Source of the DNA: a virus | Strand: one strand, 5' to 3' | Virus record (IMG/VR): IMGVR_UViG_3300045988_076504 | Coordinates: 32,001-96,000 of that record | DNA: 64,000 nucleotides | In this document: piece by piece, positions 22,445 to 57,138 of the stretch | Position numbering within the stretch: the stretch's first letter is position 1 | Layout: every line of letters starts with the position of its first letter | Notes under the pieces: model-generated | Seen by the model: the letters and a program-made list of their open reading frames with translations, nothing else | What the model was told of the DNA's origin: nothing | Databases searched by the model: none | Made by a program: the position numbers and the translations under genes

Positions 22445-25400
22445 ATGGGAGATATTAGAAAATTAAGAGCCATCTCCGCAAATGTGAGACGGCAAGAAGA
22501 ATATCAGCAGCGATTGAGGAATGAAGAGCGTGAGAAAAAACGCAAAGAAGAACTTCTTCGTCAACGTGAAAAGGAATATTAGGAAGCTTTAAAAAAGAGA
22601 AAACAGGCTGAAGAAGCCGACGCACTTATACGAAAACATAAGGAGGAAAATAATTATAAGCCTGTTGATTCTCTAATAACAAAATCCGAAGAGCCTCAAA
22701 AACAAGATTCTGCCGATATAATAAGACCTGTAACTAAACCTCAACCGAGTATATATAAAAGTCCTTTTAGAGAAGATACAATATTTGGAGCAGATGGTAA
22801 ATTAAACAAGTACGATTGGACAAAGTCTGAAAAGGCTATGAAATATACTCCAATGGTACAAAAAATGGTAGATAAATATAAGCAGGATGAGAGTGACAAG
22901 CGTTTGAGATATGCCACAACTCCTGCTCGTATTGCTAACATGATGGCAGATCAAGCTGATTTGGAAGAAGCTCTTGCAGCGATGGGTGCTCAAAATGATG
23001 CGAATACCATGGCAATGAAAGAGGAGCTTAAAAAGATCAAAAACGACATTCAAAAGGAAGTAGATTGGTATACTGCAACAACACCTCGTAGTAATTAGAG
23101 TGATATTAGAACAGATAGTTCGCGACTTATTTCTTATTTTGATGCTGGTGGTATAGGAGAAGCTTCTGTAGATATAAATCATGCGTTAAAACAGCAACAA
23201 CAAGCTAAAAAGCTCGGTCTTATTAATGACGGTCAGTCTTTGCTGGCTGACGCGTATCACACGTTCATGATTTCTAAAAACGAAGTTCAACGACAAACAT
23301 CACAAGGTAAAATTAATACTCTATAGCAACAGTTAAATATGGCGAACCCTCAGGGTCTGGACGAGTATCAAGACATATGTGAACAATATATACAATTAAA
23401 TCAATGGTTGAACAGTGTTAAAAGAAGATATACTAGCGGACAAGGAATTACACCAGAAGAGAAAAGACAATGGGATCCTGTACAGAAAAAGATCAACGAG
23501 TTAAATAGCAAGAAAGAACAATATGAAAATATGTTTAATAATCTTGCTACTTTTGAAAATCAAACAACTGTTGGAGATTGGGTGTCAAATTCACAAAAAT
23601 ACTTAAACAAACTCAATTTGGATTTTGGTACTGGTGTTGGAGGATCTTTGAAAGGATATGGTGAAAATATAACCGGTTTTTAGAAAGCATTGGCCAATAG
23701 AGATCAAAAAGCTGTAAATTTTTATAAAAACAAGTTAAAAGGTATATTTAAGAATTTCTCTGCAAAAGGTGAAGAAATGAAAAAACTTTGGTAGAGAGAT
23801 TATGATATAGATACTGCAGATTTAAATCGTTGGACATCGGACTACAAAGTATCTGAATATTTCAAACAAAAAGAACAAGAAGCTAATGATTTAGCATGGT
23901 ATAATCCTAAAAAACTATGGATGGCTCCGTCTTTGTTAGGATCGTCTATGTCTTCTCCGGAAAAAACATTAATGTCCGTGGGAGCCGGATTGATAGCTCT
24001 CATGGGTTCGATATTAGCTCCTGAGACAGGAGGTGCTTCTATAGCACTTACAGCAGGAGCCGTATCATTCTTAAGCAGTATGGCAGCAGGAGCTGATGAG
24101 AACTTTGCAAATGTCGCAGATGCTACAAACGAAATAGCCAAGAAAGATTTAGCTAAAAAAGGTCAGATGGATAAATTTTTAGCTGATGCCAGACAAGTTC
24201 TTGGTTATAATACAACAGAAGAGGACGCGTTACAAGCATTTTATCTCGGCAAATATGTTCCGAATGACTTTAAGATACGTCAGACTTTGTTAGATGCTAC
24301 GGCAGGTTCTGCAAAGCAGTATTATCAAGGTATGGGTGTAAATACATGGGATTCTCTTGTAGATGCTATTGTTACATGTATGCCTACTGGTGGTATTGCA
24401 AAAGGATCTAAAGTTGGGTTCTTAACAGATAAAATCGCAAGTAAAGCGGATAGAAAGTTGTTGAAAGCTCAGCTTTCTAAATATATGAAAGCAAACAATG
24501 TATCTCTCAAAGAAGCTATCAAGGCTTTCAATGAAAGCGGTGCTAGTAGAACAACAATATAGAACGCCATAAATGATTTACGACAAGCTGTCAATGCTCC
24601 TGCTAATTATCTAAGAACGCTATCTAAAGACGTTGTAGAGAAAATGGGACTCCCTGTATTGCAACAAAAAGCAAATGCGTTGTTAGACAAAGGTCTCGCT
24701 AAAATGGCAGAAAGATCTTTAAGACATACAGCTAATGTTACAGACATGCTTGCAGCTGTTCCAGAAAGAGTTTTGAAGTATAGAAAAAACTTAAGACTTG
24801 CTGGTAAACTAGCAAAAGATCTAGGATGGCGTACAGCAGCGTCTATGTATTCTGAAGGTGCAGAAGAAGGTATTCAGCAATTGCAACAATATCAACGTAT
24901 GGAAGAAAGGTCGAATGCGTATTTCAATGTATTAGAACAACTTCCTCTTACGATAATTGATGGAGCTAAATTATGGAGTACGTTCTTATTTAAGAATCCA
25001 GAGAACCTTACAGCGCAAGAAAGAGATATAGTACAACAGATGCATGGTGGTATATTGGGAGCTTTGTTACAAGGTGGACCGATGATTGCAGCACAAGGAG
25101 TTGGTGGTACGTATAAGCAATACAAGCTTGATCAGATTATAATGAATAACCTTTTAGCAGACAATATAGCAACAAATGACTATCTTGATAAAGCTAGGAT
25201 TTTGTCGCAAGAGCTTGGAAAAGGGAATTATAAGAACATTATAGAAACTCTGAATCAATACGATGAGTTAACTACAAATATGCGAAATCGTCATAAAGAC
25301 GATCCTAATTGGGCGCTTCCTCAAAATCATATAAGCAATCTCCATAAACTTTTAAATGTTGTTGCAAATTTGCAACAAAACGAAGAGGTTAAAAAAATAA

Positions 25401-28400
25401 AGAATTCTATTTTTAATTATGAAGATGATACGAAAGGCGTTATAAGAAAAACCGCAAAAGGTATATGGGATAATACATTTAATAGAAAAGATGCAAAACG
25501 CAGAAGCCAACTTAGAGACGATTATAATACATATATAGGTATCTTAGCAACGAGGTTGAACGAGATAAATGATTCCAAACAGTTCTTGGACGAAAAGACA
25601 AGAGATCTTATTTCTGCAAGATTTAATCAAGGTACATTTGAAGACTATGTGAACAACAATCAAGCTAATCCTCTTGTAGCGGAACTATCTACAAAAATTG
25701 AAAAAGATGAACACGGATATCATTTGGCTGACGCATATAAAGATAACCAAGATCTACAAGAGAAGTTTAAATTGCTACAAGAAAATTATTAGACTCACAA
25801 TTCGAATGCAGAAGTACTCCATAGTCTTATAGGTTAGATGCAGACGATGCAGCTTTTACAAGACATGGAGAAGATTAAACAACTCCCAGGAGGAACCACA
25901 CTGTCATCTAGAGCTAAGTTTGAAGTTGATCGTACTAAAAAACGACTTCGTGAGTTACATGGCGATAATATAAAGCTTGATACAGAAGAAGATGTTAAGA
26001 ACTTTGCAGCATCACAAGGCTATAATATAGACGACGATTATGTGGATGCATTAAGACAGGTATCTGATGCTAGAATGCAAGTGAACTTCAATACGGAAAT
26101 GTTCAACAGGCTCATTACAAATACGAAAGACGCTGTAAAAGCTGTCAAATCATTTAAAGAGAATCGTAAAGCCGATGAGGAGTTAAGATAGAGTATTGAA
26201 GATGATTTCTACAACAATGAAATAGATCGTCAAAAGTTCGAAGCGTCGGAAATAAACGATGATAACAATACATTTACAAAAGACGGTAAAACGTATGTTG
26301 TACGTGATGATTCTGATGGTGTACGTAGAGTATACGAATACGACTCTGAAAACGACAAGCTTGTTCCTACAAATAAATAGTTCAATAAACGAGAGTGGTA
26401 CGATAGTAGATAGTAGTTTGATGCTGAAACAGCAGACCATGAAAAACTCAGAGCTAAATATGACGATTATAAAAGCTTGCTCGATAAAGATGTAAATGAT
26501 CTGACGGATCAAGAGAAAGAAAGACTTGAAACATACAAAGGTATGTTAGATAAGTTTAATCGTTTTGATGATTCTGAGCAAGCAAGAAATAAGTATTTAG
26601 AAGATGCTTCTAAGACTCCAGGATTAAAAACAGATTATACAGAAACCTTTAGAAATTTATCAGAGTACGCTAGCGAAAAAGGATATACTCAAGATCAATT
26701 TGATAGCCTTGTAAACGAATTAGCAAAAACATCAAACGATGGTTATAGAACCAGAGAATAGAAAATACGCAAATGGGTTGAAGATGGTAGAGATGTCGAA
26801 TATTCTTATACAGGAGATTCTTATTTTATTGGAAGCGATCATGTGTCAAAAGAAGCTTATGATTATGCTAAATGGTTGCAAAAACGTAACGAAAATCAAG
26901 ATGACGTTGTAGAAGATGACGAAGTTTTGGTAGAGCCTCCAATTGTTCCAGAGACTCGACCAGAAGATGAAGATAACTAGAGAAAAGCTTATCAAAAGCC
27001 AGAAACTACGTTTACGCATAATGGAAAGCCTATCACCTTGCAACAAGCTTAGGTTTTAACACAACTGCAGCCGTATCTAGCATCTGATGAAAAATATCAT
27101 TATGAATGGCGTACTAGTGAAAACTATTTTATAGAAGAGAATGGTAAAATTGTAATGTACAATCGTCTACATAGTTTGTTAGATCCGTATATTGCAGATG
27201 AGCCAGAAAAAACAGAATCTATAAAAGAAAATACAAGAATATTACAAGCCGCAAGAGACAAATGGAAAACCGCTATTGACAATAACGAATCTTCTGACCG
27301 AATTAAAGAGTTAAGAAAAGAGTATGTTTCATTAATCGAACAAATGCGTGACGATTATAACGAAATAGTTATGCTCAAATATAGTCAGAATGAATCAGAT
27401 GTTAAAAGATTCTATTTAAATTTTGATGGATATTTTCAAAATGACGACATTCTTATAAGCGATGATGCTGTAAACGCAATGGCTACCATGCTTGCTCGTA
27501 AAGATAACAATTTGTTCGAAGTTGGATCTACCACAGTATCTGGTACAATTGTAGACGAAATAGCAAGATCTGTATTCGCACATTCTCGTGTGGACAATAT
27601 TCCAAGATTTAAAATGAGCGATGAAACATTTTCTAAACTCGTTAAAGATCTAGAGAAAGAAAGAGATCGCTGGGAATCACTTGGTTATACTATTGTAACA
27701 GAAGGATTGTGTTTCCATGGTGAAATCCAAGACAAAGATGGTAATATAGTCCGAGTTGCTGGAGAAACAGACATGTTAGCAATAGCTCCAGACGGGTCTA
27801 TTACAATCGTAGATTATAAAACGTCTAAGAAATCATGGGAAACTAAACAACGTCCTACAGGTGTACAAAGTACCGAAAGTGTTATAGACGCATTGGATTG
27901 GCAATATAGCAAACGCTATGCTTTTGGTAAACGACAACGTTCTACAGCAAGAGTATTCTATACAAATCAATTGAACGCATACAGGCAAATGATAACAAAC
28001 TGTACTGGATTGTCTGTTGCAAATCTTCAACTGATGGGATTTTAGACAGATATTGAAGAAAGTAATGATAGAATATTGTTAAACAAAATAAAATCTATTA
28101 GCGAACCTACAATTGTAGATATTGCTGTATTAGATCCTGTATTGAGTGAACATTCTTATATAGAACAACGTAGTGTAATAGAAGAAAGAATAAAGGAAAC
28201 TAAAGAGCGTACAAAAACCGCATTTAAAGAATATACCGATAAGTTTGCTGCTGTTGGAGAATTGATGCAAGACGTTCAAGATCCTAAATTACAAGCTTTG
28301 TATAAATATGCGAAAGAACAGATTGATAAGATTGGAGACATTGATCAGATCAACGACTTGGACAGATTAAACTAGCTTTATAATTGGATCAATAATAGCA

Positions 28401-31400
28401 TGTCCAGTTTACGTAATTTGGAAGCGGAAGCTCAACAAGCATTGAATGCTCAATCAGAAGATGCGTCTAGAAACGAAGGTGTTACACCTAACAGCAAAAA
28501 ATTCAATGCTCCACACAGAGTGTATAGTGATGAAGAGTTGAAACATTATAATCACACAGCACAGGATCCTAAATTCTTAAACGCCCAATAGAAGAAAGAA
28601 TTACAAACGTTCAAAGATTGGACAACACGACCAGATTTCGCATAGAATGTTCAGTTTGAAATAGATTTCGATGCGTCCGGGTTTATACATGGAGTACCTA
28701 CAGCGGGTACCAGATTAAAATTCAAATCTATAAGTTATAACGGTGTTAAATTATCACCATCCGTTGTGCAGAATATTTCATTTATGTGGTCTGTTGATCA
28801 AGACGCATCATCATTACGCCAGCGTCTTATACAATGTTTTAATGACAATTATGACGATATCAAATCTGGCAAAAAGAAAATCATATTAAAGAACGTACAA
28901 AGAACAAACGGTAAATTACTATTCGGTGATACTTCTAAAAATGTACAAGAAGCGTTGGAATTGTCAGACGAACAAGTTTCAAATTTGTTAAATTATGATA
29001 GCGATGCTGTACTATTAATATCGGATAGTGCTGGTATTGTACGTAGATTGGATAGTGAAGATAAGAAAGCCGGGTCTGGAACCGCTGAGCGTATTTCTAA
29101 AAAAGAAGAAAATAGAAACCGTCCTGGTATTGTATACATACAAAAGTAGCTGCATTATGCTGAAGATGAAGGATCTGGAAATAAACCACACACAGCTTTA
29201 ATTCCGCTCACGCCTGCTAAAATGTCATCTGGTGCAGTAGATCTCATAATAGATATTCTTACAAACACCGGTAAATCCAAAAATATGTCTGCAAAAGACA
29301 ACAACGGAAATTCAATACCGGGACCTATAAATAGATCATTACTGTTACACTACTTAATCCGTTTTGGAGGTGGTGCTGAAGCTATGATGAATAGTTTCCA
29401 ATTCAATTATGAAAGTAATGGTCAAAACGGTTTGGACTACAGTAAAGTATTCATAAGTACAGATAGAGGTTAGACAAAAACAACTTATAACTTAAAAGAC
29501 ATACAAGATGTATAGAAATTAAGAGAGTGGTTGTTAAATAATGCATATTTGAATGTACAAAATATATCTTTGATTCGAGATAATGTAGCAACATCTAAGG
29601 ACGGTATTTTTGCAGGAGTAAAAGAATGGTTTGATAATCATCCTGATGTAGAATCTATATCATACTCTGACGAATTTGTAATAACGAGAGATGATGTAAA
29701 TTCTAATATCGGAGGAATACAATGGATGATTAAAAACAACTGGTTGCAATCTCAGTATACTGGTATTACGGACGCTATTGTATCTGCTAATGATTTTGAC
29801 ATAATAGATCAAGTTCAAAACGCTCCAGAAAATATTTAGAAACAGCAAGATGATTTTGATCGAGCTGTGGAAGAGCAACTAGGACCGATTCCGGACGGTG
29901 TAAACGATAACAACGATCAAAACACAACAAACGATGCTCCGATCTCTTTTGATGACTGTGATAACGCTTGGGGAAACATAATAGATCCTAGCGCGACACT
30001 ATTCATGAGAAACCCAGAACATCCAAAACGACCGATAACAGAAAAACGTCAAATGGACAAAGCTATTCAAGATGTCAAAAGGATGTGTGGAGATACAGTT
30101 CTCATAGAAACGTTGGACAGTGTTCAAATGGCTGAAAGATTTGGAGATGCTGTTGGAGCATGTACTCAAGCAAGTATTGTGTTATCGTACGGTGCGGAAA
30201 ACGGAGTTCAATACCACGAAGCATTTCACAGAGTTGTAGAATTAGCAATGCCAAAAGATGAGCGAGACAAATTGTATAATCTGTACAAGACTAAATACGC
30301 TAAGAATACAAACCTTAAAGATAAGGATGTTGCTGAAGATTTAGCCGATATGTATTTTGATTACAGTAAGAATGTATGGCACCCGAGAAATAAGTTGTTT
30401 GCAAAACTATTCTCGAAAATATATAATTATATAAATGCTTTATTGACAACAAAAAGTTTTAAATTTGCAGCAACGTTTGTTAGAATTGATTACGGTAAAT
30501 ATGCTAAGAATGAAATAACAAAAGAAAATCAAGACCGTTTTACAAAAGAATTCCACAATGTACTGAAAATGACATTGAAAGATTCTACTGGTAAGGAGCA
30601 TGTATTTAATAATGTATATACACAAACACAACTAAAAGACGCTGTTGATGTATTGTTACCTTTAATAATCAAATCTCAAGGTATCGATATTCTTGGTTCT
30701 AACGCAGATACTCTAAAAACAGATAAAAAATCTTTGCTTGCAGAAGGTTCTAAATTCGCACAAATATATAGACAGTTAACGTGTGGTGATGCTACTGAAT
30801 TATAGTTAAATCAAGCTGTTGCGGAAGGTAAGTTGTCTCCACTAACAAGAAATAATGCATTAGCTTTACGAGAAGTGTTTGACAACTGGTCTCTTGTACA
30901 ACCGATGTTGGAAGACAAATTACGTGCCGTCGGACTTCGTTCGAAACTTGGAGATGTCAATCAGATAAGTGCAGATGTAACTAGTCATACAGACGATGCC
31001 TTTTATTCTCATTCTATGAGTGACGATATAGGTTCTGCGATGCTTTATTTACTTAGTACTATACCAAATCAAAGGTATGTTACACAAGAAGATGTGGCTT
31101 CTGGCTTAGCTAAAAACATGTATGCTACAGATAAAAATGGAAATATTATAATGGAGAATGGTAAACCGAAACGCGCTACTATTCCAGCAATACGTAATAG
31201 TTTCGGAATGACTTCGTATCTTCCATTTAAAGCTGTACACCAAAGAATGTTAACAGAATTGCACGATGTAAAAGATGTTCGTGATTTGGTAGAAAAACTT
31301 AAGAAGTTAGGAGAAGTAGATTACTTATTTAACACTCTTGCACAGTATCTCGAAAGATTTAGATACTTGTCATATATAAGGTTTTCAGATAAAGAGAAAT

Positions 31401-34400
31401 TTGGCGAATATGTAGGATTCCCTGTCGTGATGTATAAAAACGCAATAGTCGATCCGTCATATTATATTGCAGATACATCTATTCGTAATGAAGATACAAT
31501 GTATCCTAAACAAATACGCCTCGTTAAGGATTTAAAGGACAAAAAGGGCAATCTCATATGTAAGGCTGGTGATATATTACAAGGAGCTGCTATATTGTAG
31601 GATCAAGATAAACAAACATTAACAACGTTGTTTTATCAGTCTATAAAATCACAGAAGATGAATTTCAACTTCTTCAACATTAGAAATTCTAAAGGTGAGA
31701 ATGGAAGATATGAATATTCATATTAGCCTACAAATACAGACAGATCAATATCTCAGTTGCCTATAGGGTGGTTTGATAATATTAGAATAGGTCTTACAGG
31801 TTTGTATAACAAAGATGGTTCTGTTAATAAGTCTAACAAATCATTTGAAACGACAAGGCAATTCTTGATGTCCATAAGAAACCAGCTTATTAATAATTCT
31901 GGATAGGTATAGATTGGTGATAAGATATATAAAATGAGCGACGCCGCTGATTTCGATCATGTTGTTTCTGCTACTGTACAATCTTTAAATAATGTTGGCA
32001 TAATGGTAAATAAAGCAACATGGTACAACATGTTGCATCGATTAAATCCGAACGAAACCGATTACACAATATCGTTTAGAGAGATCATGACAGCAAGTAA
32101 CGAAAAAGGTCTTAGTATCGCGCCATTTATAGAAAAAGGTGGAGTATTAGATAAATTACAAAAAGCTGTTGATTCTGGCGATTTGAATATGTTTACACAA
32201 GACGTTGCACAAACTGGAAAGAGAGGTGGTTATTCTGGAGCATATTTATACGCTAGAAATAATTTTGTTAGAAGACTTGCTGAAGAAACCGGTGTATATC
32301 GGTCAGCAACATCTGAAATAATGACAATTGGAGCAGGAGATACTAAATTGTATATGTATGCTCAAAACAATACCGCATCTGATGTTACTGACGATTTGAA
32401 TTCATCTCTTAACGAAGACGGTACGGTTAGAGAAGGATCTATTTTGAGCGATATGTAGAATGTAGAATATGTAGTTTATCATGACGACCGTGGCGGTATA
32501 CATGGATCTGTAATAGCAAAGGCTTTATTAGATCCTAATTTTAATAGAAATCATAACAGACTCGAAGTTATTACAGAAGCCGGTTCTAAACAAAGATTTG
32601 GACCAAGAGATAGCGTAAAGTTTGCAGAAATGGAAAAACGAACAGATTATCTTTCTCGTATTCAAAAAATAACAGACGGTCTTATCATATTCCCAACATT
32701 GTCTGATAAATCCACATATATGACAATAAAAGGTTTTGATAAACAGTACAGACTTCCAGGATTTAATTACGACTAGAATATTACAGAAACAAGTTCTACT
32801 GCAGATTTAAATAATTTCGGGAAACTTCCGTTCATAAATAAAAACAACGGTGCTCTTATATTTGATGCTGCTGATAAATACAACAATTATTCTCAAAACG
32901 AAGTGATCGACCAGTTTATAGAGTATTATGAAGCAGAACATCGTAATGTGTTAAAAACGTTAAATGAACTTGGATTTGGTCCGGACAAAAGTAAAAAATT
33001 ACCTAAAGAATAGCTGGTTAAGAACTATCATACCGGTAGTATGAACGGTGCGAGATATACTTCTATTTCTGGAATATATGATGAAAATGGTAATTTTATA
33101 TCATTTAATTTTAAAACCGATTCCGAAGATAAAGGTGTTATTGAATGCAACAAGATTGCAGAAACAGAATTCTTTAGTAAGCCGATAGAAGAAAAAAGAG
33201 CGATTGTTGCTAGAATATTAAAACACAGACTTGATGACGAATTACGCGGTTTGGTTGATGCCGGAATTATACAAAAGCAAAATAATGACAATTCTTCTCG
33301 GAAGAATGCAGATTATAATAATTATAAAAACGTGTTTTTATCGAATAGTGTGATAACACAACTAAAATAGGCGTATTCGTTAAATGAAAACTTTAAGAAA
33401 GCTGCGCCTGGATCATTAAATACTGAAAGTTTAGCTGTAGTAGCGTATGTATACGATATTATGTGTAAACATCTGATGTGTATAGAAGAAACACGTAGAT
33501 TCTATACAGGTATGCCCCAGTTCTTTAAAACAAGTTTCGGAGAAGATGGTCGTTTAACTGTTTTTGGAAATGATGAAACAAAACGTTACGGTGGTGTCGG
33601 ATCTACTGGTGTAAACAATAGAGAAGATATTCCGGGAATGAACGATGATTATCGTGTAGCTGAAATAAATGATTGGGAAACACCGTCTCCGGTTTTAGAT
33701 TCTTTAGGAACGTTGTTTAAGATTGGAGAATATAGAGAGGCAGTCGCTAATATAAGATTGCGAGAGCTTGGAGAAAATGCAAACGAAATTTAGAAATATG
33801 CTTTGTATGATTCTGTAAATTAGATGGACGAAGATGCAATGCGAGAAGTACTAGATGAAGCAGGCGTATTAAAAATGCTGGATAAAAAGATAGAAAAAGA
33901 AGCAAAGGCTTTCTCTAATGTGAATGTAGCTGATGGTACGGCATTCATTAGTGACAAGATGTGCGAAAATCTTTTGAAACAGCGTGGCGCATTTACAAAA
34001 GCTGTTGAAAATGCATTTAAAATACTGCGTAGTGATTCTGACGATTATCTGAAATTGTCCCAGTCATATAAAATTATACACAACGCTATGATCTCTACAT
34101 AGAAATATTCAGCGTTTGGTTATAGAATGGAGAATGGTACACCTGTACATTATTATAATAAATATGCATTATTTCCGGTCTTTAAAGGAATATCGTACGG
34201 CTTTATGAAGAATCTGTATGAAAAAATGAATGACGCTGAGAATGGAGTAGATGTTGTATTGTTTACATCTGCTGTTAAAGCAGGATCTCGTGGAGCACAG
34301 CGTTTTGATCCGAACATATCTCAAGAAGAAATTAAAAATTTCTCGTTTAAGGGTCATATATATAAGTAGAAATACAAACATATGCGTAGACAGTTGAACA

Positions 34401-35236
34401 CTGATCCTAGAACAGACGAAATAATGTCTGCTGGTACACAGGCGTTAAAAGTTGTATTATCTACATTACGAGACGGATAGACATACAATATACTTGGACC
34501 AGACGGTTAGATACACGAAGCCACATCTTCCGAAGTTAGAGATCGTGTAATGGAATTACTCAATAAGATTGCTGATTCAGGGTGGAATAAGTTGTAGGAT
34601 CAATTCTTCACAAACGGCAACCTTGATTATTCAAAACTACAAGACTTCTTAATTCATGAGTTACTTGGAAGAGATGCTGATCAAAATATACTCGATGCTT
34701 TGTAGCTCAATGAAAACAAAGATGGCTTCATAGTAGATTTAAATAGTGTTTCTAACATGACTTGGGTTGAAAGTATTTTGACGTCCAAAGTAAACAAAGA
34801 TGTTATTGATTTACAACTTAAGGGAAACGCATTCTATCAGAGATCTGTATTTGGTATGGATAGTCCTTATATCGCAATGAGCGACGATGAAGTGTCCAAC
34901 GAAATAAATGGAGGAAAACCATTACAAATGATCAATGAAGAAGGTAGTATGGATGCTGTGGTATCTATAGATTATTTTATGGATATTATTCCAAAAGAAT
35001 ACAAATACAATTTTAATAAAGCTAAGCAGTGGCTTATAGATAATGGTATTATATCCGGTGTAAAAACTGGAGAAATAGCATGGAGCAATGCAGAAGCAAA
35101 CACCATGTCGTATCGTATTCCTACACAGGCTGCATCTTCAATCGGCGCATTACGATTTGTAGATGTGTTACCTATTGTCAGAGACACTATTGTACTGCCT
35201 AAAGAATTTACAGCTTAGACTGGTTCTGACTTCGAT
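22445..35236 (+). CDS. Giant virion protein, exon 1 (includes PD-(D/E)XK nuclease-like and HExxH segments; ends in ...TGSDFD)
   Basis: Twenty track ORFs from 22838 to 34757 are all in frame 2. Every junction I checked is TAG (about 40 in-frame TAGs by manual count). ATG at 22445. Exon 1 ends at U35236, the 5' splice site. Confidence 0.75.
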
Positions 35237-36162
35237 AAACATCAATGTCGAAATAAAAGTATGTGAATTGCTGGGAAATCCCTATGGGACAATCAGCAGC
35301 CTAGCCCTACGAAAGGGAAGGTTCAACGACTAATAGTATATTATATAATAATTCCTCATAAATTGAAGAAAGAAATGAAAAAGATTTTAAAAAATAGATT
35401 AAATGAAAATGGTAGAAATCTCCTAATTGCCGCTGCACTTGGAGATGGATGTATAAGTAAACAAGGATAGATGTTAATAAATCATTCTTGGAAGCAATAC
35501 GAATATTGTAAATGGAAACGAGAACTTTTAAAAAAGAACGGAATAAAAGTAGGTGTTTTACAACGTTTTGAAGGTTCAAATGGATATTTAAAACACACAA
35601 TACAATATAGATTTTGCATTGGTATTACACCATTTAACAAAGTTCTAAGACGTATTATGTACAATGAACACGGTAAACATTATTCTCGTAAATTATTAAA
35701 CAGACTAAGTCAACAAGGTCTTGCCTTGTGGTTTATGGACGACGGTGCAATATTACGTAGAAAATATAAAGGTAAATATTGCGGGTTCTATTTAAGAATA
35801 TCTACATATTGTACATCACAAGAAGCTGATGATATTATTAAATATTTTGTTGAAGAATGGGATATACACCCTACCAAAGTACATGAAAATAAAATAAAAC
35901 ATTATGATGCTTATACTATCAATTTTGGAGCAAAAGAAGGTAAGAAGTTAATAGATATAATTAAGCCTTATATGTGTCCAAGTATGATGTATAAAGTGTT
36001 ATATGATATCGAAGAATTAAAATCTTATTATGATATACAAGATGTGAGGGAAGTTCTCACAGAAAGTACATTAGAGTCTGATAGACTACTAATGGAAGCG
36101 CATACTACATCGAAAGATGTAAAGATATAGTCTAATCTTCGTAGCAATACGAAGTATAAATG
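35237..36162 (+). mobile_element. Group I intron (926 nt) carrying a LAGLIDADG homing endonuclease ORF
   Basis: P1: exon TTCGAU (35231-35236) pairs with GUCGAA (35247-35252), with a U-G pair at the splice site. P10: AUCAAU (35241-35246) pairs with exon 2 AUUGAU (36163-36168). Terminal G at 36162. GNRA hairpins CCC-UACGAAA-GGG and CUUCGUA-GCAA-UACGAAG. Splicing restores the frame and gives ...GSDFD|IDKLYM... Confidence 0.85.
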
Positions 36163-36163
36163 A
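35375..36163 (+). CDS. LAGLIDADG homing endonuclease (double-motif)
   Basis: ATG at 35375. Motif 1 is LLIAAALGDGCI and motif 2 is LALWFMDDGAIL. The in-frame TAG at 35468 separates motif 1 from the rest, so it must be read as sense. The TAG at 36128 is also read through, and TGA at 36161-36163 straddles the 3' splice site. Confidence 0.85.
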
Positions 36164-39100
36164 TTGATAAGTTATATATGTCTACACTTCATTATGATGT
36201 AGAGTCTGTTGACAACGATTATATCGATAAAAAAGGATAGATACACAGAAGAAAGACATATAACGCTAAATCTTACAATTTATCAGATGTTACAAACAAT
36301 AACACAAACGAGTTGTTGCGCATATATTTGTCTTTGTTAAAAGATACCGGATAGTACAAAGATGGAAAGATTGTAGGTGGAAGATACGGACACGTATTAA
36401 GAAGATCTATTGATAGTGATACGGATTTGATAAAAGAGGTTCTTTCAGAAATAGAAAGTAGTATAGAACAAAAAGCATACGAACCGTATCAATTTGAAAG
36501 TATGTCGTTTTAGGTTAATACCAGATCTGCATTTGCAACCGGTAAAACTGGTATCGGACCATTTGCGCTGAATAACAACAGTCAAATTCTTACACAAATA
36601 TATGGCATCAAGTTTATAAACGATGGTGGTATATTAAGTTCTTTCGGAGCTTTATCATTAGATAGGACTTCGGACGTTGATGGAAAATCTATATTATCTT
36701 GGATTTCTGGTATGATTAATGCTCACGTAGACGTTGCGAAAGACCCGTATATATTGAGATTAAATATCAATAAAGACACATATAATCTTGCAGCATTGTT
36801 ATTACGTTTAGGATTTGGAAGACACGCTCTTTATTTCTTAAACAATCCTGTAATGAGAGAGCTTTCTGCTATACGAAATGAGCAGGACGGATAGATTGTA
36901 AACGACCCTGGAAAAACTCCAACACAGCGTAAAGAAAAAGCTGAGAATGAATACATTAAAGATGTATTCGGTAGTAATAGTGTGGCATTCTCATACGTAA
37001 ATGCAAAACCAGATGAAAAAGATGATATTGCTAAACGAGCTTTTAAAACGATTGTACAGATATTTGGAAATCCTTTTAAAGAACATAAAGATACTACAAT
37101 ATTACAAAGTATTTGTTAGAGTTTGTATGGAGAAAATGGTGAGAAAAAGGTAACAGATCTGTCAAAGGACAAGATATATAAGTTGGAAGATGGTACAAAA
37201 TTATCACCATTTGAAGTTCAACAATATGTATATATAGCATCTAAAGAATTTGAATCTTACGCTTAGGGTTTGTCAGACTTAGTACAATATACTAAAATCG
37301 ACACAAAGAAACAAGGTATAAATTATACAGAACAGTAGAAGTATTTGCAAGGTTATGAGAAACTTTACAATAGCGGAATGTTTAATTCAAATCTGAAACA
37401 ATTGTTGAACGATTCTTATATACATACAAAAACAATATACGGTACTTCATTCTTACCTAGAGTATTAGGCGGACAAATGATCCATATGTCATATCAATTC
37501 CAAGCTGAAACAGAATCGATTTTGGATAAAATTAACAACCATTCTAAAAATTCTAGAGAAGCTGTACAAAAAGCAATGCTGTGTTATATTAAACAAAAAG
37601 CTTTCAATAAGGCGTTTAAAGATTATGTTGATAAATATAACGAGCAAAATAATACAGACTACACAATAGAGAAATATTGGGAACATTTAATAAAAGGAAA
37701 CGATACTTTATCTAATCGTATTTAGAAGCTACAGAGATGGATATAGGCTGATAATAAAGGACTGCTAAAAGAATTCGGTTAGAATGGTGTTATAACAAAT
37801 GCGATACTTAAGAACTTATATCCGGTACCGTACATATCTCAATATGGGCAAGATCACTTTGATATTATCACTTTAGGAAATAATAGCGAAGATGAAAAAT
37901 CTATAAGTAATGATTATATATATTCATGGGAACAGATGTTAAATTATACAAATAGTGAACGTCTGGGATTACAGAAATATATTAGAGATTTAGCTAACGA
38001 TCTTGCTATATACGCATTTATGACATCTGCAGACAGTAAAGGATTTACAAAATTCTTTAAATACGCGCCACTTCAATGGAGAAAAGAGTTTGGATATTGT
38101 GATAATATTGCGGAAGCAAACAAAGAATATCAAGAAGGTGGTCTCACATTAACTACAGACAATGTTAGCGAATACGGTATCGATTTCGATGATTTTATAT
38201 AGAATTTCTATTACGACAACAATATATTACCGGAAACGTCTTTAACTGATCGTAATGGTCGCCAACAAATGGTTACTTCAGCATTTACATATAACACTCT
38301 TGACGAATACGGTAATCCTACATTACGTACAGAACCTAAAAATATAATAGGTCTTAACATGCGTGGTAATAAATATGCACAAAGTATTAGTAAAAACAAA
38401 GACGGATACTTCCCAGAATATATAAAAACACGTAGAAACGGAACACGATATAACGATAACGATCAATTCCTATTGTATAAACTCGTAGATGTCGGAATTG
38501 TAAAGAATGGAAATGTCGAATTAGAATATCCAATATATCAAATTATAAACGCCAAAGGTTTACAAATGCAAATTGGTTCACAAACATATCAATTCTATTC
38601 TTGTGGAATGAATGATAATTACGAGCGTTCTCAATTTACCACGAAAGATAAATCTGGAAATAGGGTAAAGCCAACCATGGAGCAAGTGCAAGAGTCTTAT
38701 AATAACCGCAAAGCTGCTTTATAGAAATACATCAATGAGAATAATTATTCTATACTTGATGCGGTTAAGAAAGCAGGACTCGTTAGTAAGAATGATATAT
38801 TTGGAGGACAGTTATCTAGTATACAAGAAGCGGCATATAGCGGTATAGGTTCAAATAAGAATACTGTGAATGTTAACTTCGGAGCAAGCGATAATCCACA
38901 TTTGTCTAATTTTGCAAAACGTCCTATTTCTGATATATTTGACGTAGTTGAAAGTTTTATTAATTCTCCAGAGTTTTATAAAATAAAATCTACGGTTAAA
39001 CATAAGGCAGACACTGTAGAAAATGCGTTCTAGGCGTTAAAAGTGTTGTATTCTGATTTGAATGATAATGATAAGGTGGTTAAATTTAATCATATTATAT

Positions 39101-39465
39101 CACTACCGTCTGCAAAACAAGCTAGAGCGGAAGGTAGATCGTTACCTATTAGTAGTACAAAACTTAAAATGTGGGACGATATAAGTACTGATGTATTACA
39201 GTCTTTGATGAGGGCTTCTTTTGAGCAGAATGAAGACGCAGCGCAAGCATTGGTTGATACTGGTGATAAAATAATAACACATGATAACGCAAAAGGTGAA
39301 TCTTTAGATGATAGATTTGCTCCAGCATTGACTCAGATACGCCAAGAGTTAATAGATGGAGGACATGCTCCAAACACTGTAAAACAACAATAGTCTTTGA
39401 AAGATTATCCCGCTAACGAGGCTCTTGATGAATTAGCAGATCAAATAGACGAACAATGTAAATAA
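36163..39465 (+). CDS. Giant virion protein, exon 2 (RNAP-like region continues; C-terminal NADAR domain)
   Basis: Starts IDKLYMSTLHYD. ORFs 36712, 37345, 37936, 38269 and 39043 are all in frame 1, joined by TAGs (about 14). A genuine TAA is at 39463-39465. Exons 1 and 2 together give about 5364 codons. Confidence 0.75.
38860..39393 (+). other. NADAR (YbiA/DUF1768-like) domain at the C-terminus of the giant protein
   Basis: PHLSNFAKRPI, VENAF-(TAG)-ALK and WDDISTDVLQSLMRASFEQNEDAAQALVDTGDKIITH parallel my recollection of E. coli YbiA: FSNFAAWPI, EHYFQAQK, WESVKEQVMRKALRAKFEQHAELRALLLATAPAKLVEH. Confidence 0.75.
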
Positions 39466-39474
39466 CAAATCATT

Positions 39475-42400
39475 ATGGTATGTTTAATTAAAAGTAAATA
39501 TAAAGAAGAATTAGATTTATACACATAGTTGCTAGGCTCTGAAAAACGAGCCTACGCGATTTTGTGTTGTAATAACGGATATACTCTAGACAAGACTAAA
39601 GATGGAAAACCATCTAAATTGTATAATGATTTGTTAGAGTATTATAAAGGAGATGTAACAAAAGCTGTGCAAAAGAAAGCATAGCTTTTTACATCTGAAT
39701 TTACAAAAGATTACGGTCAATGGTACCAAGACGGATATGAAATATCTGACGAATATAAAGATGTATTTGATGAGAATGGAGAACCGCTGCTTAACGGCAC
39801 ACATTTTGGTACAGCAGATAATAAGATATTACTCGGCGGGCAGAAAAAATTTGCATCAATAGAAGAGGAGGAACAATATATATTAGAGCACGCTACACGT
39901 GATGAAAATGGAAAACTATTGGCACCTAATGGCAAACCTTCAAATCTTACAGAAAAACAATACGCTCAAGTGAGAACTAAAGCCTTTAAAGAGTGGTTTG
40001 GTGATTGGGAGAATGATCCAGAGAGTGCTTCTAAGGTAATAGATGAAAATGGAGAACCTTTGGTTGTTTATCATAATACACCATTTAAATTCAATGGTAT
40101 ATTTGATATGGATCATGTTTCAAGAATTATGCCGTAGATGTCAGAGCCATTTGGTCATGTAAGGACTAAAGAAACCGCCAATACTATAAAAGGTTCACAA
40201 TACGCTCTTTTCCTCAATTTAAAAAATCCATTAGAAACTCCTGATTTTGTCCACGAATCTGTAAGTTCCATGTTATCCGAGCTGTATAAACAAGGTATCA
40301 TTTCTAGAGAAAAATATTCTTCTCTCAGAGGAATATCTAATTCAGAATTAAGAAATTTGATGCTTTCTTTGGGATATGATGGTACAAAATATGAAAATAA
40401 AGCAGAAAGAGGCGGGATTTCTTATAGTTTTATAACACCTAATCAAATTAAATCAGCAACAGACAACGTAGGTACATTCTCTAAAACTAACGATAATATA
40501 TACAAAAGACGTGGTGAAAAGAGAGACAACCATATGTACAACAGGGAGCGTGCTGTAAAATATATTAAGGATCAAGGATACACAATAGACAATCTGGTTC
40601 ATGACACATATGAGACAAGATTTGAAGTCACATTAAAAGCTAAAACTAAAGAAGACGTTTGGAGATCGTATATAAAGAATATGGATCCTGCGTTAAAGGT
40701 TAAATATGCAGGAGTACGTATTGGTAAGAAAGACCCTAGACTTGAAGTTTAGATTAAAACCAAAGAAAGTGAGTCACTAACTAATCTAAATCAGTTTCTT
40801 GATAAAAAATCTTTAAATACTGCGCAAGATCTTTTACAATATATTATAAAACAAACTAAAGACGAGAATAATCAGAATTTTTCTTTCATCCGTGCTGTAT
40901 TAAAAGATATTAATAAAACTGTTCCCGAATTATTTAGTAATATCAATGTCAAAGTAATTGCCGATAACAATGGTAATTATTCTGCGAAATATGACAATAA
41001 TACAAAAACTATAATTATAAATAGTGCAAGATCGTTCGGCAACGAAAATAATTTCAACGATGAGTTAATACAGACATTGACTCATGAAATGATACATGCT
41101 GTTACGGTGGAAGCGTTATAGAGATCTAAACAATTGCGTGAAAGAGCTGAAAGATTATTATCAGAGCTCAAAAAACAATTTAACAATGATCCAGATATTC
41201 AAGGTATACAGGATGTGTACGAAATGGTTGCCGAATTAAGTAACGATGAATTTATCAAAAAATTGTAGTAGATACAATATTCTACTGATGAAACATGGTT
41301 TGATAAGATAAGAAGATTTATATCTACTGTTATTCGTCACTATCTACGTAAAATAGGGCTACAATATAAAAATACCGCATATTCAGAACTCGCTAATATT
41401 TTTGTACAATCTGCGTACGGTAAGAAAACCGGTTTATAGATGTCTGAAAACATAGATGAAAAGACGGTTTTTAATAGAAACTCTAAAAAACGCATACAAG
41501 AAGCTAAAAAGAAAGTAAAAGCTAAACTGAAGGAAGGTATACATATTGTCGGAACACGTGATTCTACATAGAAGCTTATAGACAAGTTGTCGCAGGATAT
41601 AATATTAGGAACACGTAGTAAAAATAAAGCATATTCTTCTAAAAGAAACAGTAGTGTATCTTACGGAAATGAAAGGTAGATTGCCAGAAACCAAGAAGCT
41701 GTAAATTTTGTAGACGAGCAAGCTAAAACTATAAACGAAGCTATAGCTGAGCGTGATGCAGAAAAACAATTAACCGAACAAGCAAAACTTATACTCGATT
41801 TTATAGATCACGCTGATTCTGATATAAATGAAGTACTACAAATGCTTAAAAACGCATAGGATAACGACTACGATTTAATATATTATAATGTCGACCAATT
41901 TGGAAATAGATTGTATCAAGATCCGTCTGGCAATTCTATAACAGCTCAAACTGCAGGAAATAATACTATAGCCAAGTAGTTTTCATTCGATGATATACAA
42001 TATATGACAACCGATATTTTAGGTTATTATCAAAAACTTCTAAGCGACATTGACAATATGTTATTGTAGGTACCAGTTGGCAAAAATGCAATTGTTGATG
42101 AAATTCGCGATCTTATGCAATCATTAAGACTACACGATCAACTTCGAGCTGCATCTAATATGAAACGACAAGCGCAAGAGAAAATGCTTGATTTTTATAT
42201 AGATCAACGTATAAATCAACAAGAATCATCAGAACTTACTGATGAAATGAAACAGAGGTTGTCTATCAACATGAAAAAATGGGTAAAATCCCAATATGAT
42301 TTTGGAGATGTTGGAAGTTTCGCTGTATGGACGCAACTCATATCTGATTCAAAAAGTCCTATTGTGAGAATGATGGCAGATGAAATCTATACAATGAATC

Positions 42401-45400
42401 AAGAAATAGATAGTGCTATTGTTCCGAGGGGTGAAGAATTAGAAAAAGCTTTAAAAGAAGCCGAAAACGAAATGTCTATTTTAGGAAATCATAATCCAGT
42501 CAACGTAATGACGATGTTGATGCAAAAGGATAGACGTGGTTATTACAACGGAGATTTTGTACAACCTATTAACAGAAGACAATATTTTCAAGATCTTGAA
42601 GATTTTAAAACTGCGTTGTTGTTTGGAAAGGGAGGGTTGCAAGACTAGTTAAAGAAAAAGATCAGCAATGACTTTGAATTAGAACTAGACGAATATGGAG
42701 AACCTGCAATACCAACAGGTGTTGAGTTTGATGATATATACAAAGACTACAAACGTAAGATGGAAACGTTTATATGTGATCATGCTAACAGACGTTTTAC
42801 GAAAGAGTATTATTTGTCTCGCATAGACACATTGTCTCCAACTACTATTCGTGTATTAGATCAATTTAGTAGGAAAATTAGTAATTTGAAAAATTCTGCA
42901 ACGGTTGATGGTAAATTCAGACCAGACCTGCTAAGTTCTAAACAGCGTGCAGAATTAGCACAGCTTTAGAAAGATAGACAGGAATTAAGTAACCCGTATG
43001 ATCAGTTTGGAGAATTAAAAGATCCGGATTTTATTGAAGGAATCGTAGCTAAGGAATTAAATGACTGGCAGGACGTAATAAATGGAGAGATAAAATATAA
43101 AAGCGACGTAGAAGCGTTCAACGAATGTCTTAATAATATACAATCTCAAGCAGAAAAAGATCAATTTAAACGCATGTTTGCATATGTTGGTTTAAATCCT
43201 AACATGTATAACTTTTTAGCAAAATATGAGTATATAGGTCAAAATGATGCTGTTAGACAATTACTTGACGAAATAAGCGAACTACGTAAGAAACTTCGTA
43301 AACTAATCGGAATAAACAAAGATCGTTCGTCATATCTTGGTTATAATTGGGAATAGTTATTCGATATTCGTACAGGAGAGATAAAAAACGAAAAACTTTT
43401 AGCAGAAATACGTAACGTTGATGATTAGTTACAACTTAAATCACAAATGTTGCGTAATATAAGGAAGAGCGACAAAGAAGACGAAGATACATTTGGCGAC
43501 AAATGGCAACTCATTCCAGGCGTTTCGTATGGCAGATTATTTACACAAATGTATTATGGTAGTGTAAATATAGATCCTACTTAGAGTAGTACTCAGACTG
43601 TATATTCTCCAAATAACGACACTGTTTATGAAATCGTACGTAATAATTATATAAATTATCTGACTAGTAATGGAATGTCAATACAAGACGCTACAGATAA
43701 AGCATCTTAGATGTTAACTATAGGTCATAATACACCGTTGTCCATTTTCATGGTGTAGATGCCTAGCAGCAAAACATTTAAATACGAAGATGAAAATGGT
43801 GTCGAGCATAGTGAACCGTCTTTTGTATGGATTCCAAATCAATTATTTAGTAAGGTGGATACTGAAAATTCATCTTCTAGGTTTATAAATAAGCACTTTG
43901 ACGAATCATCCGGAGAAAGTGTACAGCCGAAGGAAGAAGACTATAGAGACGAGCGGTATTACGAAATGATAAAGCATCCAAAACTTAACGATTTATACGA
44001 CAAGCTCGTAAAAGGTATGTAGGATGTTTACAGTATATTGCCGTATTCTGGTAAATACGATATGAGACTTCCACAAATGGGAGCTAACACAGCTGCGATG
44101 TTGACAAGAAATTTATCAAACGATTATGGTTTTCATTTTGCATCAAACCTACGGTCTGTATTTAATAGATTTGCCAACGCTACTGAGATAGATACTGATT
44201 ATTATATTCCAGAATACAATAGACGACCAGATGGCAGTACTATTAAAAACATACCAATTAGGTATATAAACAGAATAGATGATTCTAGAAATATATCTTC
44301 AGACTTAGCTGGTGGTGTCATAGCGATGTTGAAAATGGCTACTAACTATAACGTTAAAAGTAAACATATATCTAAATTTGAATCTATATTAAATTCTATT
44401 AAGGAAAACGATGTTGGAGAATCTAATCAATCTCGTGTAGTAGAAGGAATGCTCGACAGATTAATGTATGAAAATCAAAACAATACAAAGAAAAACAAGG
44501 ATGTTGAAGATATAAGTAAGATTAGACGTATATTCATAGGTGGCCCTAAAACTCTGTTAAAACGTTTAGGAATCGCAAGAGGTGCTTCAACACTTATAAA
44601 CCTTGCAGGTAGAGGTGTATCTATGATAGTTTCATTTTTAGATCCTTTGCTTAGTACGTTTATAGAATCACTTACCGGTAGATATTATGGTGCGCGCGAT
44701 CTTATGTGTGGTGTATTCGATACATGTAGAGAGTTCCCATTAATGCTTGCTAGTATTTCTAGAAGAAAATCTTTTAGTAAAACTATGGCTATTATAGACG
44801 CTCTCGGTATGGAAAAACCTATAGAGCATAGATTTTCTAATATGCATCATTCTTCTATAAGACGACTTCTTTCTGACAATTTAATGATGAAAGGATTTGA
44901 AGTTGGAGATTATACGATAAAAGCTTTTAACGTAAATAGTATATTTAGAACTTATAGAATGTACACCGATAGCAACGGGTAGGTTTCGTTCTTAAATAAA
45001 TACGACTATATACAACATTGTATACAAGACGGGATGTCTAAAAAAGATGCGGTGAAAGCTTACAAAAGTGCAAGAAATGCTCGTTCTTATTTATATGTTA
45101 AAAATGGAAGCTTAGCTTTCAAGAGTGGTATGACAGAAGATCAATTTAGAAAACTTGGAAATGCTGCGAAAAAGATTTCACAGAATATCACACTTATGGC
45201 TAATACTGAAGATAAAACGTGGATGCAAACTAATCCGTGGACAGCTTTCATTACAATGTTGCGTACATTTATGCTTGTAGGATTTGGAGAAAGGTTTAAG
45301 AATTTTAATGATTTTATTGTTGGTACAGACGAACATTACGATCCTACAACCGGAAATGTTATTACTGATATATCTGATAGAAATCTTACGAGTCGTGAAA

Positions 45401-46215
45401 TAAAACAATAGAAAAAATAGCATTATTATAGAGGAGGTTATAATTTTATGACAGGTCACATTGAAAATGGTATATATATGAGTAACCTCAAAGCTCTTAA
45501 AAGATTAGTGTGGGATGCTTAGAAACACAGAATTAGATTCAATCGCTTTTTCTTGAAATATAGTAATATGACACAAGAAGAACTTAAAAAGTCTGACATA
45601 TCTATGGCGGAATTATATTCACTTAAGCGTATATTATTAGAATTGTCTGTCGTTGCAGGTTGTGTTACAATGTCTGTTTTAGTAAATAGACATTGTCAAG
45701 GGTTGGATCCAGATGACGATGATAATTATTGGTGGTTCTTGTTAAATTCAATTTTCATGAGAATTGGTATTGAACGTGTTACAATGTATAATCCTTAGAC
45801 TGTTAGTGATTTGATTACGTCTATAACAACATTAACTAGTGCAACTTCTAAATTATTTGGTGTATTTGATGTACTTGGTGATTTCTTAGGTCTTACAGAT
45901 CACGATCCTAATGAAATCATAACATCGAATAGTGCATATAATGGCTATACACGGTCTTACAGAGCTACAATGAACGCTCTTTCAATTTTCGGTACAGCTG
46001 GTTGGTTTGCAACAATGCCTAAATCATTAGGAGGTGGTGGAGCTAGAGCTCTTGACAAGTCTGCAGGATGGTATGCTAAAACTGCTCCTTGGAGGTTGTT
46101 ATATAAGAATCAAGATGCTGGATATACACCAGTAGAAAAAGATTATAAAGATCCGTCTCTTGCGACAGATGATATTTCAAATTCTGATTTAGCTACAGAC
46201 GACGTTATAGAATAA
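39475..46215 (+). CDS. Polyvalent-type giant virion protein (about 2246 codons): ART-like domain, HExxH zincin motif, C-terminal hydrophobic segments
   Basis: ATG at 39475 follows the TAA at 39463. Ten track ORFs (39919 to 45811) are all in frame 1, and the 40753-42115 gap was verified codon by codon to contain TAG only. About 26 TAGs. TAA at 46213. Motifs: FKEWFGDWE..DENGEPLVVYHNT...GYDGTKY...PNQIKSATDNVGTF, and LTHEMIHAV at 41083-41097. Confidence 0.7.
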
Positions 46216-49474: not shown

Positions 49475-49530
49475 GACTTAAAAGTTCTTAGTTAGTAGTA
49501 AGAATGAGAGGACTCGAACCTCTTGATTAT

Positions 49531-49602
49531 CCATATTGACAAGATTCGAACTTGCATACGTCAGCTTAATAGCTGATGCCTTACCTGTCGAGCCACAATA
49601 TT
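49531..49602 (-). ncRNA. tRNA-like element with a non-canonical anticodon loop
   Basis: The - strand sequence folds as a 72-nt cloverleaf. Acceptor AATATTG/CAATATG has a 1-72 mismatch. D arm is TG-GCT-CGACAGGTAA-GGC. T arm is GCAAG-TTCGAAT-CTTGT. The anticodon hairpin is TCAGC-TATTAA-GCTGA, giving a 6-nt loop, or an 8-nt loop CTATTAAG if the closing C-G pair opens. No standard 7-nt loop is possible. Confidence 0.4.
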
Positions 49603-56998: not shown

Positions 56999-57054
56999 TA
57001 AATAAAATAATAAAATGAAAACAAAATTAAAACACTCTTACGATTAAAATTTTG

Positions 57055-57138
57055 TACCTCCAGCGGGACTCGAACCCGCACGTCACATGGGACAACAGAT
57101 TTTAAGTCTGTAGCGGCTGCCAATTACGCCATGAAGGT
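57055..57138 (-). tRNA. tRNA-Leu (anticodon UAA, reads UUA), class II with long variable arm
   Basis: - strand: ACCTTCA TG GCGT-AATTGGCAG-CCGC T ACAGA-CTTAAAA-TCTGT TGTCCCATGTGACGT GCGGG-TTCGAGT-CCCGC TGGAGGT A. The acceptor is 7 bp with one G-U pair. CCA is not encoded. Confidence 0.85.

Follow-up and report, generated by a model that had tools for sequence, protein, structure and literature searches.

Group I introns that carry homing endonucleases are a classical finding in essential phage genes, where they occupy the most highly conserved stretches. The introns of T4 td, nrdB, and sunY, the SPO1-like introns, and those of Bacillus phage DNA polymerase genes share with the locus described here a homing endonuclease, a position at the conserved catalytic site of an essential gene, and an in-frame stop early in the intron. 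Here, we analyzed a 64-kb stretch of viral DNA (positions 32,001 to 96,000 of IMG/VR record IMGVR_UViG_3300045988_076504; the whole stretch is referred to as the window), in which positions 35237 to 36162 very probably constitute a mobile group I intron lodged inside the DFDID motif of a crAss-like virion RNA polymerase (RNAP) gene. This element departs from the classical phage introns in its host, a single-chain two-barrel virion RNAP gene rather than a nucleotide metabolism or DNA polymerase gene, in having no P2, and in its open reading frame (ORF), which lies between P7 and P3′, is TAG recoded, and overlaps the 3′ core. The closest described elements come from the same phage order: passages of Yutin et al. 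(2021; PMC7886860) describe crAss-like phages of the Delta and Zeta groups as abundant in group I introns, with LAGLIDADG or other endonuclease ORFs, and as TAG recoded, and in the legend to Fig. 3 of that paper, the transcription gene block has a LAGLIDADG ORF labeled "intron-encoded endonuclease maturase." The window intron matches theirs in recoding and in the kind of element, and phage cr131_1, which bears a sister intron, belongs to their set. The literature passages searched, including those of PMC7886860, hold no description of the insertion point in DFDID, the two insertion sites, the ORF-less forms, or the RNA structure. The window intron is an addition to a kind of mobile element already reported in crAss-like phages, with extra natural history.

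The interrupted RNA polymerase gene

Exon 1 spans positions 22445 to 35236 on the plus strand (4,264 codons from the first ATG), as delimited by a stop-codon census, translations, homologue alignment, and a profile match to PDB entry 6VR4. Exon 2 spans positions 36163 to 39465 on the same strand (1,100 codons) and runs from IDKLY to the TAA stop at 39463, and the whole gene comprises 5,367 codons, both exons counted. The final codons of exon 1 are ACT GGT TCT GAC TTC GAT (...TGSDFD), with T35236 as the last base, and exon 2 opens with ATT GAT AAG; within the catalytic DFDID, the insertion point separates the codon for the second Asp from that for Ile. A 900-amino-acid (aa) query centered on the junction retrieved 41 homologues, about 30 of which present a contiguous GSDFD(I/V)D with no intron, within the alignment YRIPTQ...LP.EFT..TGSDFDIDKL. 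Since the ligated exons recreate the invariant motif of these homologues, the intron is more than a chance assignment. The earlier note on this DNA had allowed that the motif might lie elsewhere and the exons be separate genes; the intronless homologues read TGSDFDIDKL uninterrupted, which speaks against both.

A profile built from 20 homologues matched 6VR4, i.e., gp66, the DNA-dependent RNA polymerase of phage phi14:2, with an E value of 3.5e-71, and aligned GSDFDIDKL of the window onto GSDFDIDKM of gp66 (chain 6VR4_A). The catalytic motif of gp66 is 1361-DFDID-1365, and any single Asp-to-Ala change in it kills activity; virion packaging and early-gene transcription by this polymerase are known for phi14:2 alone (bioRxiv 10.1101/2020.03.07.982082). 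About 500 profile positions of the window protein family aligned with gp66, including YRIP(T/N)Q...TGSDFDIDK(L/M)Y, whereas the two proteins differ in that gp66 has 2,180 residues and no intron, while the window protein has 5,367 residues, is TAG recoded, and ends in a NADAR-like C terminus. This relationship was reached only with the homologue profile: a single-sequence phmmer search of PDB with a 2,600-aa spliced segment returned no match, nor did single-sequence searches of PHROGs and Pfam with the 900-aa junction segment. By this profile match, with its aligned motif, the interrupted gene is homologous to the crAss-like virion RNAP genes (gp66 family). The earlier note had placed the insert in the catalytic motif of a virion-RNAP-like gene, had read the spliced product as SDFDID, and had suggested alignment of the spliced protein to gp66, and on all three counts the homologues and the profile bear it out. 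The best tblastn matches among GenBank phages were all Crassvirales, at identities of no more than 41%, and the top matches whose taxonomy line was checked were all Suoliviridae; megablast of positions 30000 to 42000 against GenBank phages found no near relative. Judging from these matches, the phage is crAss-like and Suoliviridae-like.

The polymerase gene contains 55 in-frame TAG codons and not a single TAA or TGA in its 5,367 codons. Exon 1 accounts for 41 of them, all "stops" in its frame from 22580 to 35216 being TAG, with zero TAA or TGA, and exon 2 for the other 14, the same pattern holding up to TAA 39463. Shortly before the junction, the TAG at 35216 corresponds to CAA in the intronless relative L002, and the TAG at 35468 (codon 32) of the intron-encoded endonuclease is a CAA or CAG Gln codon in the relatives L202 and L203. 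Because TAG aligns with Gln codons in relatives, the phage would read TAG as Gln; on this comparison, it is decoded as glutamine in both the host gene and the endonuclease. Such a reading is described for many crAss-like phages in passages of PMC7886860. TAG also appears as a sense codon in both of the consecutive giant ORFs within 22445 to 46215 (plus strand), the ORF at 39475 to 46215 being likewise rich in it.

Ribozyme anatomy and covariation

The insert (35237 to 36162, plus strand) is 926 nucleotides (nt) long, interrupts the gene in phase 0, and ends in G36162, as established from the sequence, partial matches to the Rfam group I intron model, the fold, and covariation. Read into the intron, the exon 1 frame reaches a TGA at 35264 to 35266, nine codons in. 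The P1 hairpin (35231 to 35252) pairs the exon strand UUCGAU (35231 to 35236) with the guide strand GUCGAA (35247 to 35252) over 6 bp and is closed at the 5′ splice site by a U35236·G35247 wobble that is kept in all 15 related introns. The adjoining guide AUCAAU (35241 to 35246), located in the P1 loop, pairs with ATTGAT at 36163 to 36168 at six of six positions (P10). The 5′ strand of P3 (AGUAUGUG, 35258 to 35265) pairs over 8 bp across the ORF with its 3′ strand (CGCAUACU, 36099 to 36106), as indicated by the minimum free energy (MFE) fold and covariation. Between the P3 and P7 5′ strands, the Rfam alignment, pair tables, and fold place P4 (35269 to 35274 with 35293 to 35298), which encloses P5 (35279 to 35282 with 35286 to 35289), and the outer (35299 to 35301 with 35320 to 35322) and inner (35305 to 35307 with 35315 to 35317) parts of P6. 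P7 joins GACUA (35328 to 35332; invariant in all relatives), within the R element GGUUCAACGACUA, to UAGUC (36128 to 36132), within the S element AAGAUAUAGUC. The fold and covariation locate P8 as ACAUC-GAAA-GAUGU (36107 to 36111 with 36116 to 36120, GAAA loop at 36112 to 36115), with a possible sixth pair, U36106-A36121, and, together with Rfam, P9 as CUUCGUA-GCAA-UACGAAG (36137 to 36143 with 36148 to 36154, GCAA loop at 36144 to 36147). P2 is absent from the helices located in the window intron. The insert has a full group I core: P3 to P9, R and S elements forming P7, the U·G pair, the terminal G, and P10.

Two pieces of the insert matched the Rfam model RF00028 (Intron_gpI), for which the gathering score is 50 bits. 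The first covers 35256 to 35342 (43.1 bits; E = 2.2e-9 for the local stretch and 1.2e-7 for the whole window) and the second, which includes the 3′ strand of P7, covers 36120 to 36152 (23.5 bits; E = 1.6e-3 for the local stretch). Both are collinear in the model (positions 47 to 158 and 219 to 251), and neither reaches 50 bits because the ORF, a 766-nt insertion, splits the ribozyme match. The RF00028 scan of the window brought up no further group I intron at an E value of 0.01 or less. Over 67 nt, the intron core shares 82 to 87% identity with elements from phages of Bacillus, Vibrio, and Xanthomonas.

The MFE fold of the ORF-deleted intron (35231 to 35340 joined to 36095 to 36170) reproduced P1, P3, P4, P5, P6, P8, and P9 at -48.5 kcal/mol (z = -5.0 against shuffled sequences). 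The Rfam local alignment had proposed a weak, AU-rich P3′ right after P7 (approximately 35336 to 35342); we rejected it because the 8-bp helix between 35258 to 35265 and 36099 to 36106 is both MFE predicted and covarying. Fold and covariation therefore place P3′ downstream of the ORF, and the ORF between P7 and P3′, the place at which subgroup IA introns carry P7.1/P7.2. ORF-less relatives carry a 62-nt insertion at the very point after P7 where the window ORF sits. As for the earlier note, its exon and intron boundaries (35236, 35237 to 36162, and 36163) proved exact to the base on rereading, and P1 with its wobble, the 6-bp P10, the terminal G36162, phase 0, and the TGA at 35264 in the unspliced frame can all be read directly; the GNRA-capped hairpins it mentioned are P8 and P9. 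The covariance-model scan that it proposed yielded the two collinear pieces but no match at the gathering threshold. The LAGLIDADG endonuclease in the intron, the TAG recoding, and the position of P3′ beyond the ORF are additional to it.

Pairings were compared over 13 to 15 related introns, with L207 and L208 omitted from the P3 and P8 counts because their P8 is longer and the simple P8 finder failed on it. Four positions of P3 each show three to four Watson-Crick pair types (13 introns), and four of the seven positions of P9 show three, whereas P4, P7, and the outer P6 are invariant. P8 takes the form of six different stems, and its outer pair changes from U-A to C-G in the close relatives L202 and L203. 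Compensatory changes were also seen in P6 (L089 and L099) and in P5. P1 and P10 vary in step with the exon sequence, as exemplified by L089, in which the P10 guide is altered to fit an Ile-to-Val exon change. The covariation of P1 and P10 with the exons, together with the compensatory change in P8, indicates selection on splicing.

On this anatomy, the guide AUCAAU-GUCGAA would pair with both exon edges, the six closing nucleotides of exon 1 forming P1 and the six opening ones of exon 2 forming P10, and the core would be built around the two conserved P7 strands, with P3 (closed across the ORF), P4, P5, P6, P7, P8, and P9. Guanosine-initiated self-splicing of the late transcript would then join T35236 to A36163, restoring ...TGSDFD-IDKLY.... 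Translation of unspliced transcripts would end at TGA 35264 and give a product without the last of the three catalytic Asp residues and 1,100 residues short at its C terminus, so that active polymerase would depend on splicing.

The intron endonuclease and the two insertion sites

The intron ORF (35375 to 36163, plus strand) encodes a putative LAGLIDADG homing endonuclease of 262 aa, with TAG read as Gln, and its TGA stop (36161 to 36163) spans the 3′ splice site. The product matches PF03161 (LAGLIDADG_2; 67.5 bits against a cutoff of 25, E = 1.8e-18) and phrog_11023 (E = 2e-20) and contains two LAGLIDADG motifs in one chain, LIAAALGDG and LALWFMDDG. Besides the TAG at codon 32, it has a second in-frame one at 36128, whose UAG forms part of the invariant P7′ strand; the last ∼22 codons overlap P3′, P8, P7′, and P9. 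The ORF is intact in L202 and L203, at 96 to 97% identity, and gene calling with a recoded table gives the same 262-aa gene in relatives. This gene, located between P7 and P3′, presumably provides an enzyme that cuts intronless alleles at the conserved site, which would result in homing and spread of the intron. A candidate substrate is the empty site of L002, GGTTCTGACTTTGAT^ATTGATAAATTATAT (the caret marks the insertion point), the L002-type site being GGTTCTGACTTTGATATTGATAAATTATAT.

Comparative copies were gathered by pattern scans of IMG/VR followed by inspection of the flanks. At least 468 RNAP loci were confirmed, and the 80 retained ones are intronless at the DFDID motif. The intronless L002, at 65% aa identity, presents the empty site GACTTTGAT^ATTGAT, and exact TCGAT^ATTGAT occurs in 27 of the 78 intronless motif sites from the 80 loci. 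Among the matches listed, about 16 IMG/VR contigs bear the intron (one of them, L210, is the cr131_1 sequence itself), which makes carriers a minority of the RNAP loci, roughly a few percent.

The carriers, a diverse set of crAss-like phages, reveal one intron family with two insertion points in the motif, D^FDID and DFD^ID, separated by 6 nt. Site A (DxD^ID) is occupied in the window, L202, L203, and L206, as well as in the distant L102, L116, L179 (EGSDLD^IDKQY), and L200 (EGSDYD^IDKQY). Site B, D^(F/Y)D(I/V)D, is occupied in L001, L089, L091, L099, L160, L193, and L207 to L212. L202 and L203 have the same layout of exon 1 gene, endonuclease, and exon 2 as the window; these are the contigs of proteins P0001 to P0003, which start with MIDKLY... 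and are 88 to 97% identical to the window exon 2. The site B sister intron of cr131_1 (NC_055902, 60203 to 61113) is inserted after GSD, two codons upstream of the window site, between an exon 1 that ends in ...GGT TCG GAT and an exon 2 that starts with TTT GAT ATA GAC; in GenBank, the pieces of this locus are three "hypothetical protein" coding sequences (CDSs). Sister and window introns interrupt the same host motif and have identical R and S elements, P4, P7, and outer P6, the same guide core AUCAAUGU, and an equally placed, homologous LAGLIDADG ORF. They differ in the P1 of the sister, which is 9 bp long, and in the endonuclease; moreover, some site B copies are ORF-less and only 261 nt long. 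There are three of the latter (L207, 9582 to 9842; L208, 5712 to 5972; L212, 406 to 666), and they score 87 to 91 bits on RF00028, above the gathering score.

The last three bases of the window intron are ATG (36160 to 36162; 7053 to 7055 in L001), in frame with exon 2, and public gene calls start the downstream piece there, as MIDKLY in P0001 to P0003 and as MFDID in cr131_1 (YP_010113391.1). This start is an annotation artifact; other family members end in TTG.

The window endonuclease is 51% identical to the distant site A enzymes and 37 to 42% identical to those of site B. The endonuclease clade therefore follows the site, not the host. Tentatively, and as a possibility rather than an expectation, these elements may form an intron-endonuclease lineage specialized on the DxDxD codons, which would have gained its second site by retargeting of the ribozyme, with the endonuclease adapting later. 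Two endonuclease clades would then serve the two sites, after Asp 1 and after Asp 2, and the shift, for example by reverse splicing, would take place across the quasi-repeat GAT-NTT-GAT-ATT-GAT, for which only small changes in the guide would be needed. Two findings bear on this proposal: site A is used in the window lineage and also in polymerases that have diverged widely from it (EGSDLD^IDKQY), and endonuclease similarity tracks site rather than host. If the proposal is true, the two sites would document how a group I intron shifted, in nature, between neighboring positions within one catalytic motif.

Other observations concern the wider family. L089 (IMGVR_UViG_3300042311_000757) carries its site B intron in a gp66-like polymerase, IGYRIPNQG...KTGSD^FDVD, with the P5 loop expanded by ∼60 nt. 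The core motif CAATCAGCAGCC...GGTTCAACGACTAA was found in at least 120 IMG/VR viral contigs (L082 to L201), mostly outside RNAP genes, which points to a widespread phage intron family with other putative targets. The exact class A junction pattern also matched L204 and L205, GC-rich unrelated contigs with no intron core, and these were dismissed as chance matches. Two-piece tblastn matches in cr7_1, cr4_1, and cr1_1 were taken as protein-level insertions rather than introns, going by the single annotated CDS; that in Bohxovirus lies under six short CDSs.

Weighing the alternatives and implications for crAss-like phages

An intron that is real may nonetheless splice efficiently only with assistance, whether from the LAGLIDADG protein acting as a maturase or from a host or phage RNA chaperone. 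We regard such a requirement as unlikely, albeit with some arguments in its favor: P3 is AU-rich and must close across 766 nt of ORF, some LAGLIDADG proteins are maturases, and the LAGLIDADG ORF of the transcription block bears the label "endonuclease maturase" in the figure legend of Yutin et al. (PMC7886860). However, the ORF-less 261-nt relatives persist at the neighboring site in three contigs, so the ribozyme family can manage without a cis-encoded protein, and the core is complete in its conserved elements and has GNRA loops. It is highly improbable that the insert is a dead remnant, the polymerase being made as two assembling polypeptides (a split RNAP) or the genome copy being defective. 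Split large RNAP subunits do exist in other phages, and the ATG provided by the intron end, in frame with exon 2, leads gene callers to annotate separate proteins. Yet this ATG is not conserved, other family members ending in UUG, and a split would part Asp 1 and Asp 2 from Asp 3 in a motif where each Asp is essential. The coordinated variation of P1 and P10 with the exons, the U-A to C-G change in P8 of the close relatives, and the retention of the split architecture in several sampled relatives further argue against loss of function. As for an intein or another in-frame protein insertion, LAGLIDADG inteins occur in crAss-like TerL genes, according to a passage of PMC7886860, but here the probability is negligible: 926 nt is not divisible by 3, and the resulting difference in frame between the exons refutes an intein. 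In addition, the exon 1 frame meets a TGA after nine codons, Hint motifs are absent from the insert, and the RNA core is recognized by RF00028.

Several points count against the preferred interpretation, i.e., a self-splicing mobile intron in a TAG-recoded gene. The ligated junction of 35236 with 36163 is one that we infer from the sequence. At gathering thresholds, the Rfam scan of the whole 64-kb window returned two tRNA matches only and no intron, and the window copy stays below the gathering score as a single match (43.1 and 23.5 bits). The ORF runs through P3′, P8, P7′, and P9, so ribosomes translating it should upset the ribozyme carried by that transcript, and endonuclease translation and ribozyme folding would probably interfere with each other. 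Finally, neither ARAGORN nor Rfam found a TAG-suppressor tRNA (CUA anticodon) within the window, for which reason TAG decoding is read from the comparison with relatives; their genomes measure ∼100 kb as opposed to the 64 kb of the window, and a suppressor tRNA may lie outside it.

With regard to tRNA genes in the window, Rfam calls one at 49531 to 49602 on the minus strand (36.6 bits), where ARAGORN makes no call. Its anticodon arm is UCAGC-UAUUAA-GCUGA, and a T-arm-like second piece (GAGGTTCGAGTCCTC) follows it (49500 to 49602, minus strand). It is a doubtful candidate for an amber suppressor, as the 6-nt loop gives no clear CUA anticodon. A tRNA-Leu with anticodon UAA and a long variable arm is located at 57054 to 57138 on the minus strand (ARAGORN; 51.8 bits in Rfam). 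Near the C terminus of the polymerase (∼38990 to 39285), there is a subthreshold NADAR domain (PF08719; 33.8 bits against a cutoff of 35.1). The next giant ORF (39475 to 46215, plus strand; 2,246 aa) contains an ART-PolyVal ADP-ribosyltransferase domain (PF18760, 45.7 bits) and a HEMIH zincin-like motif. On these predicted domains, an ADP-ribosyltransferase and a domain that may remove ADP-ribose would form a pair in neighboring giant ORFs of the transcription block.

The polymerase is the largest and least understood crAss-like protein, and public records break it into "hypothetical proteins"; the exact junction allows its correct reconstruction, TAG-recoded genomes included. For splicing and homing assays, compact and ready material exists in the 261-nt relatives that lack the ORF and in the L002 allele, which has no intron. 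The DNA of the catalytic motif is conserved enough to serve as a shared intron landing site across a very divergent phage order. If splicing proceeds as proposed, each virion must carry polymerase made from spliced mRNA, and the production of infectious particles would thus depend on the ribozyme.

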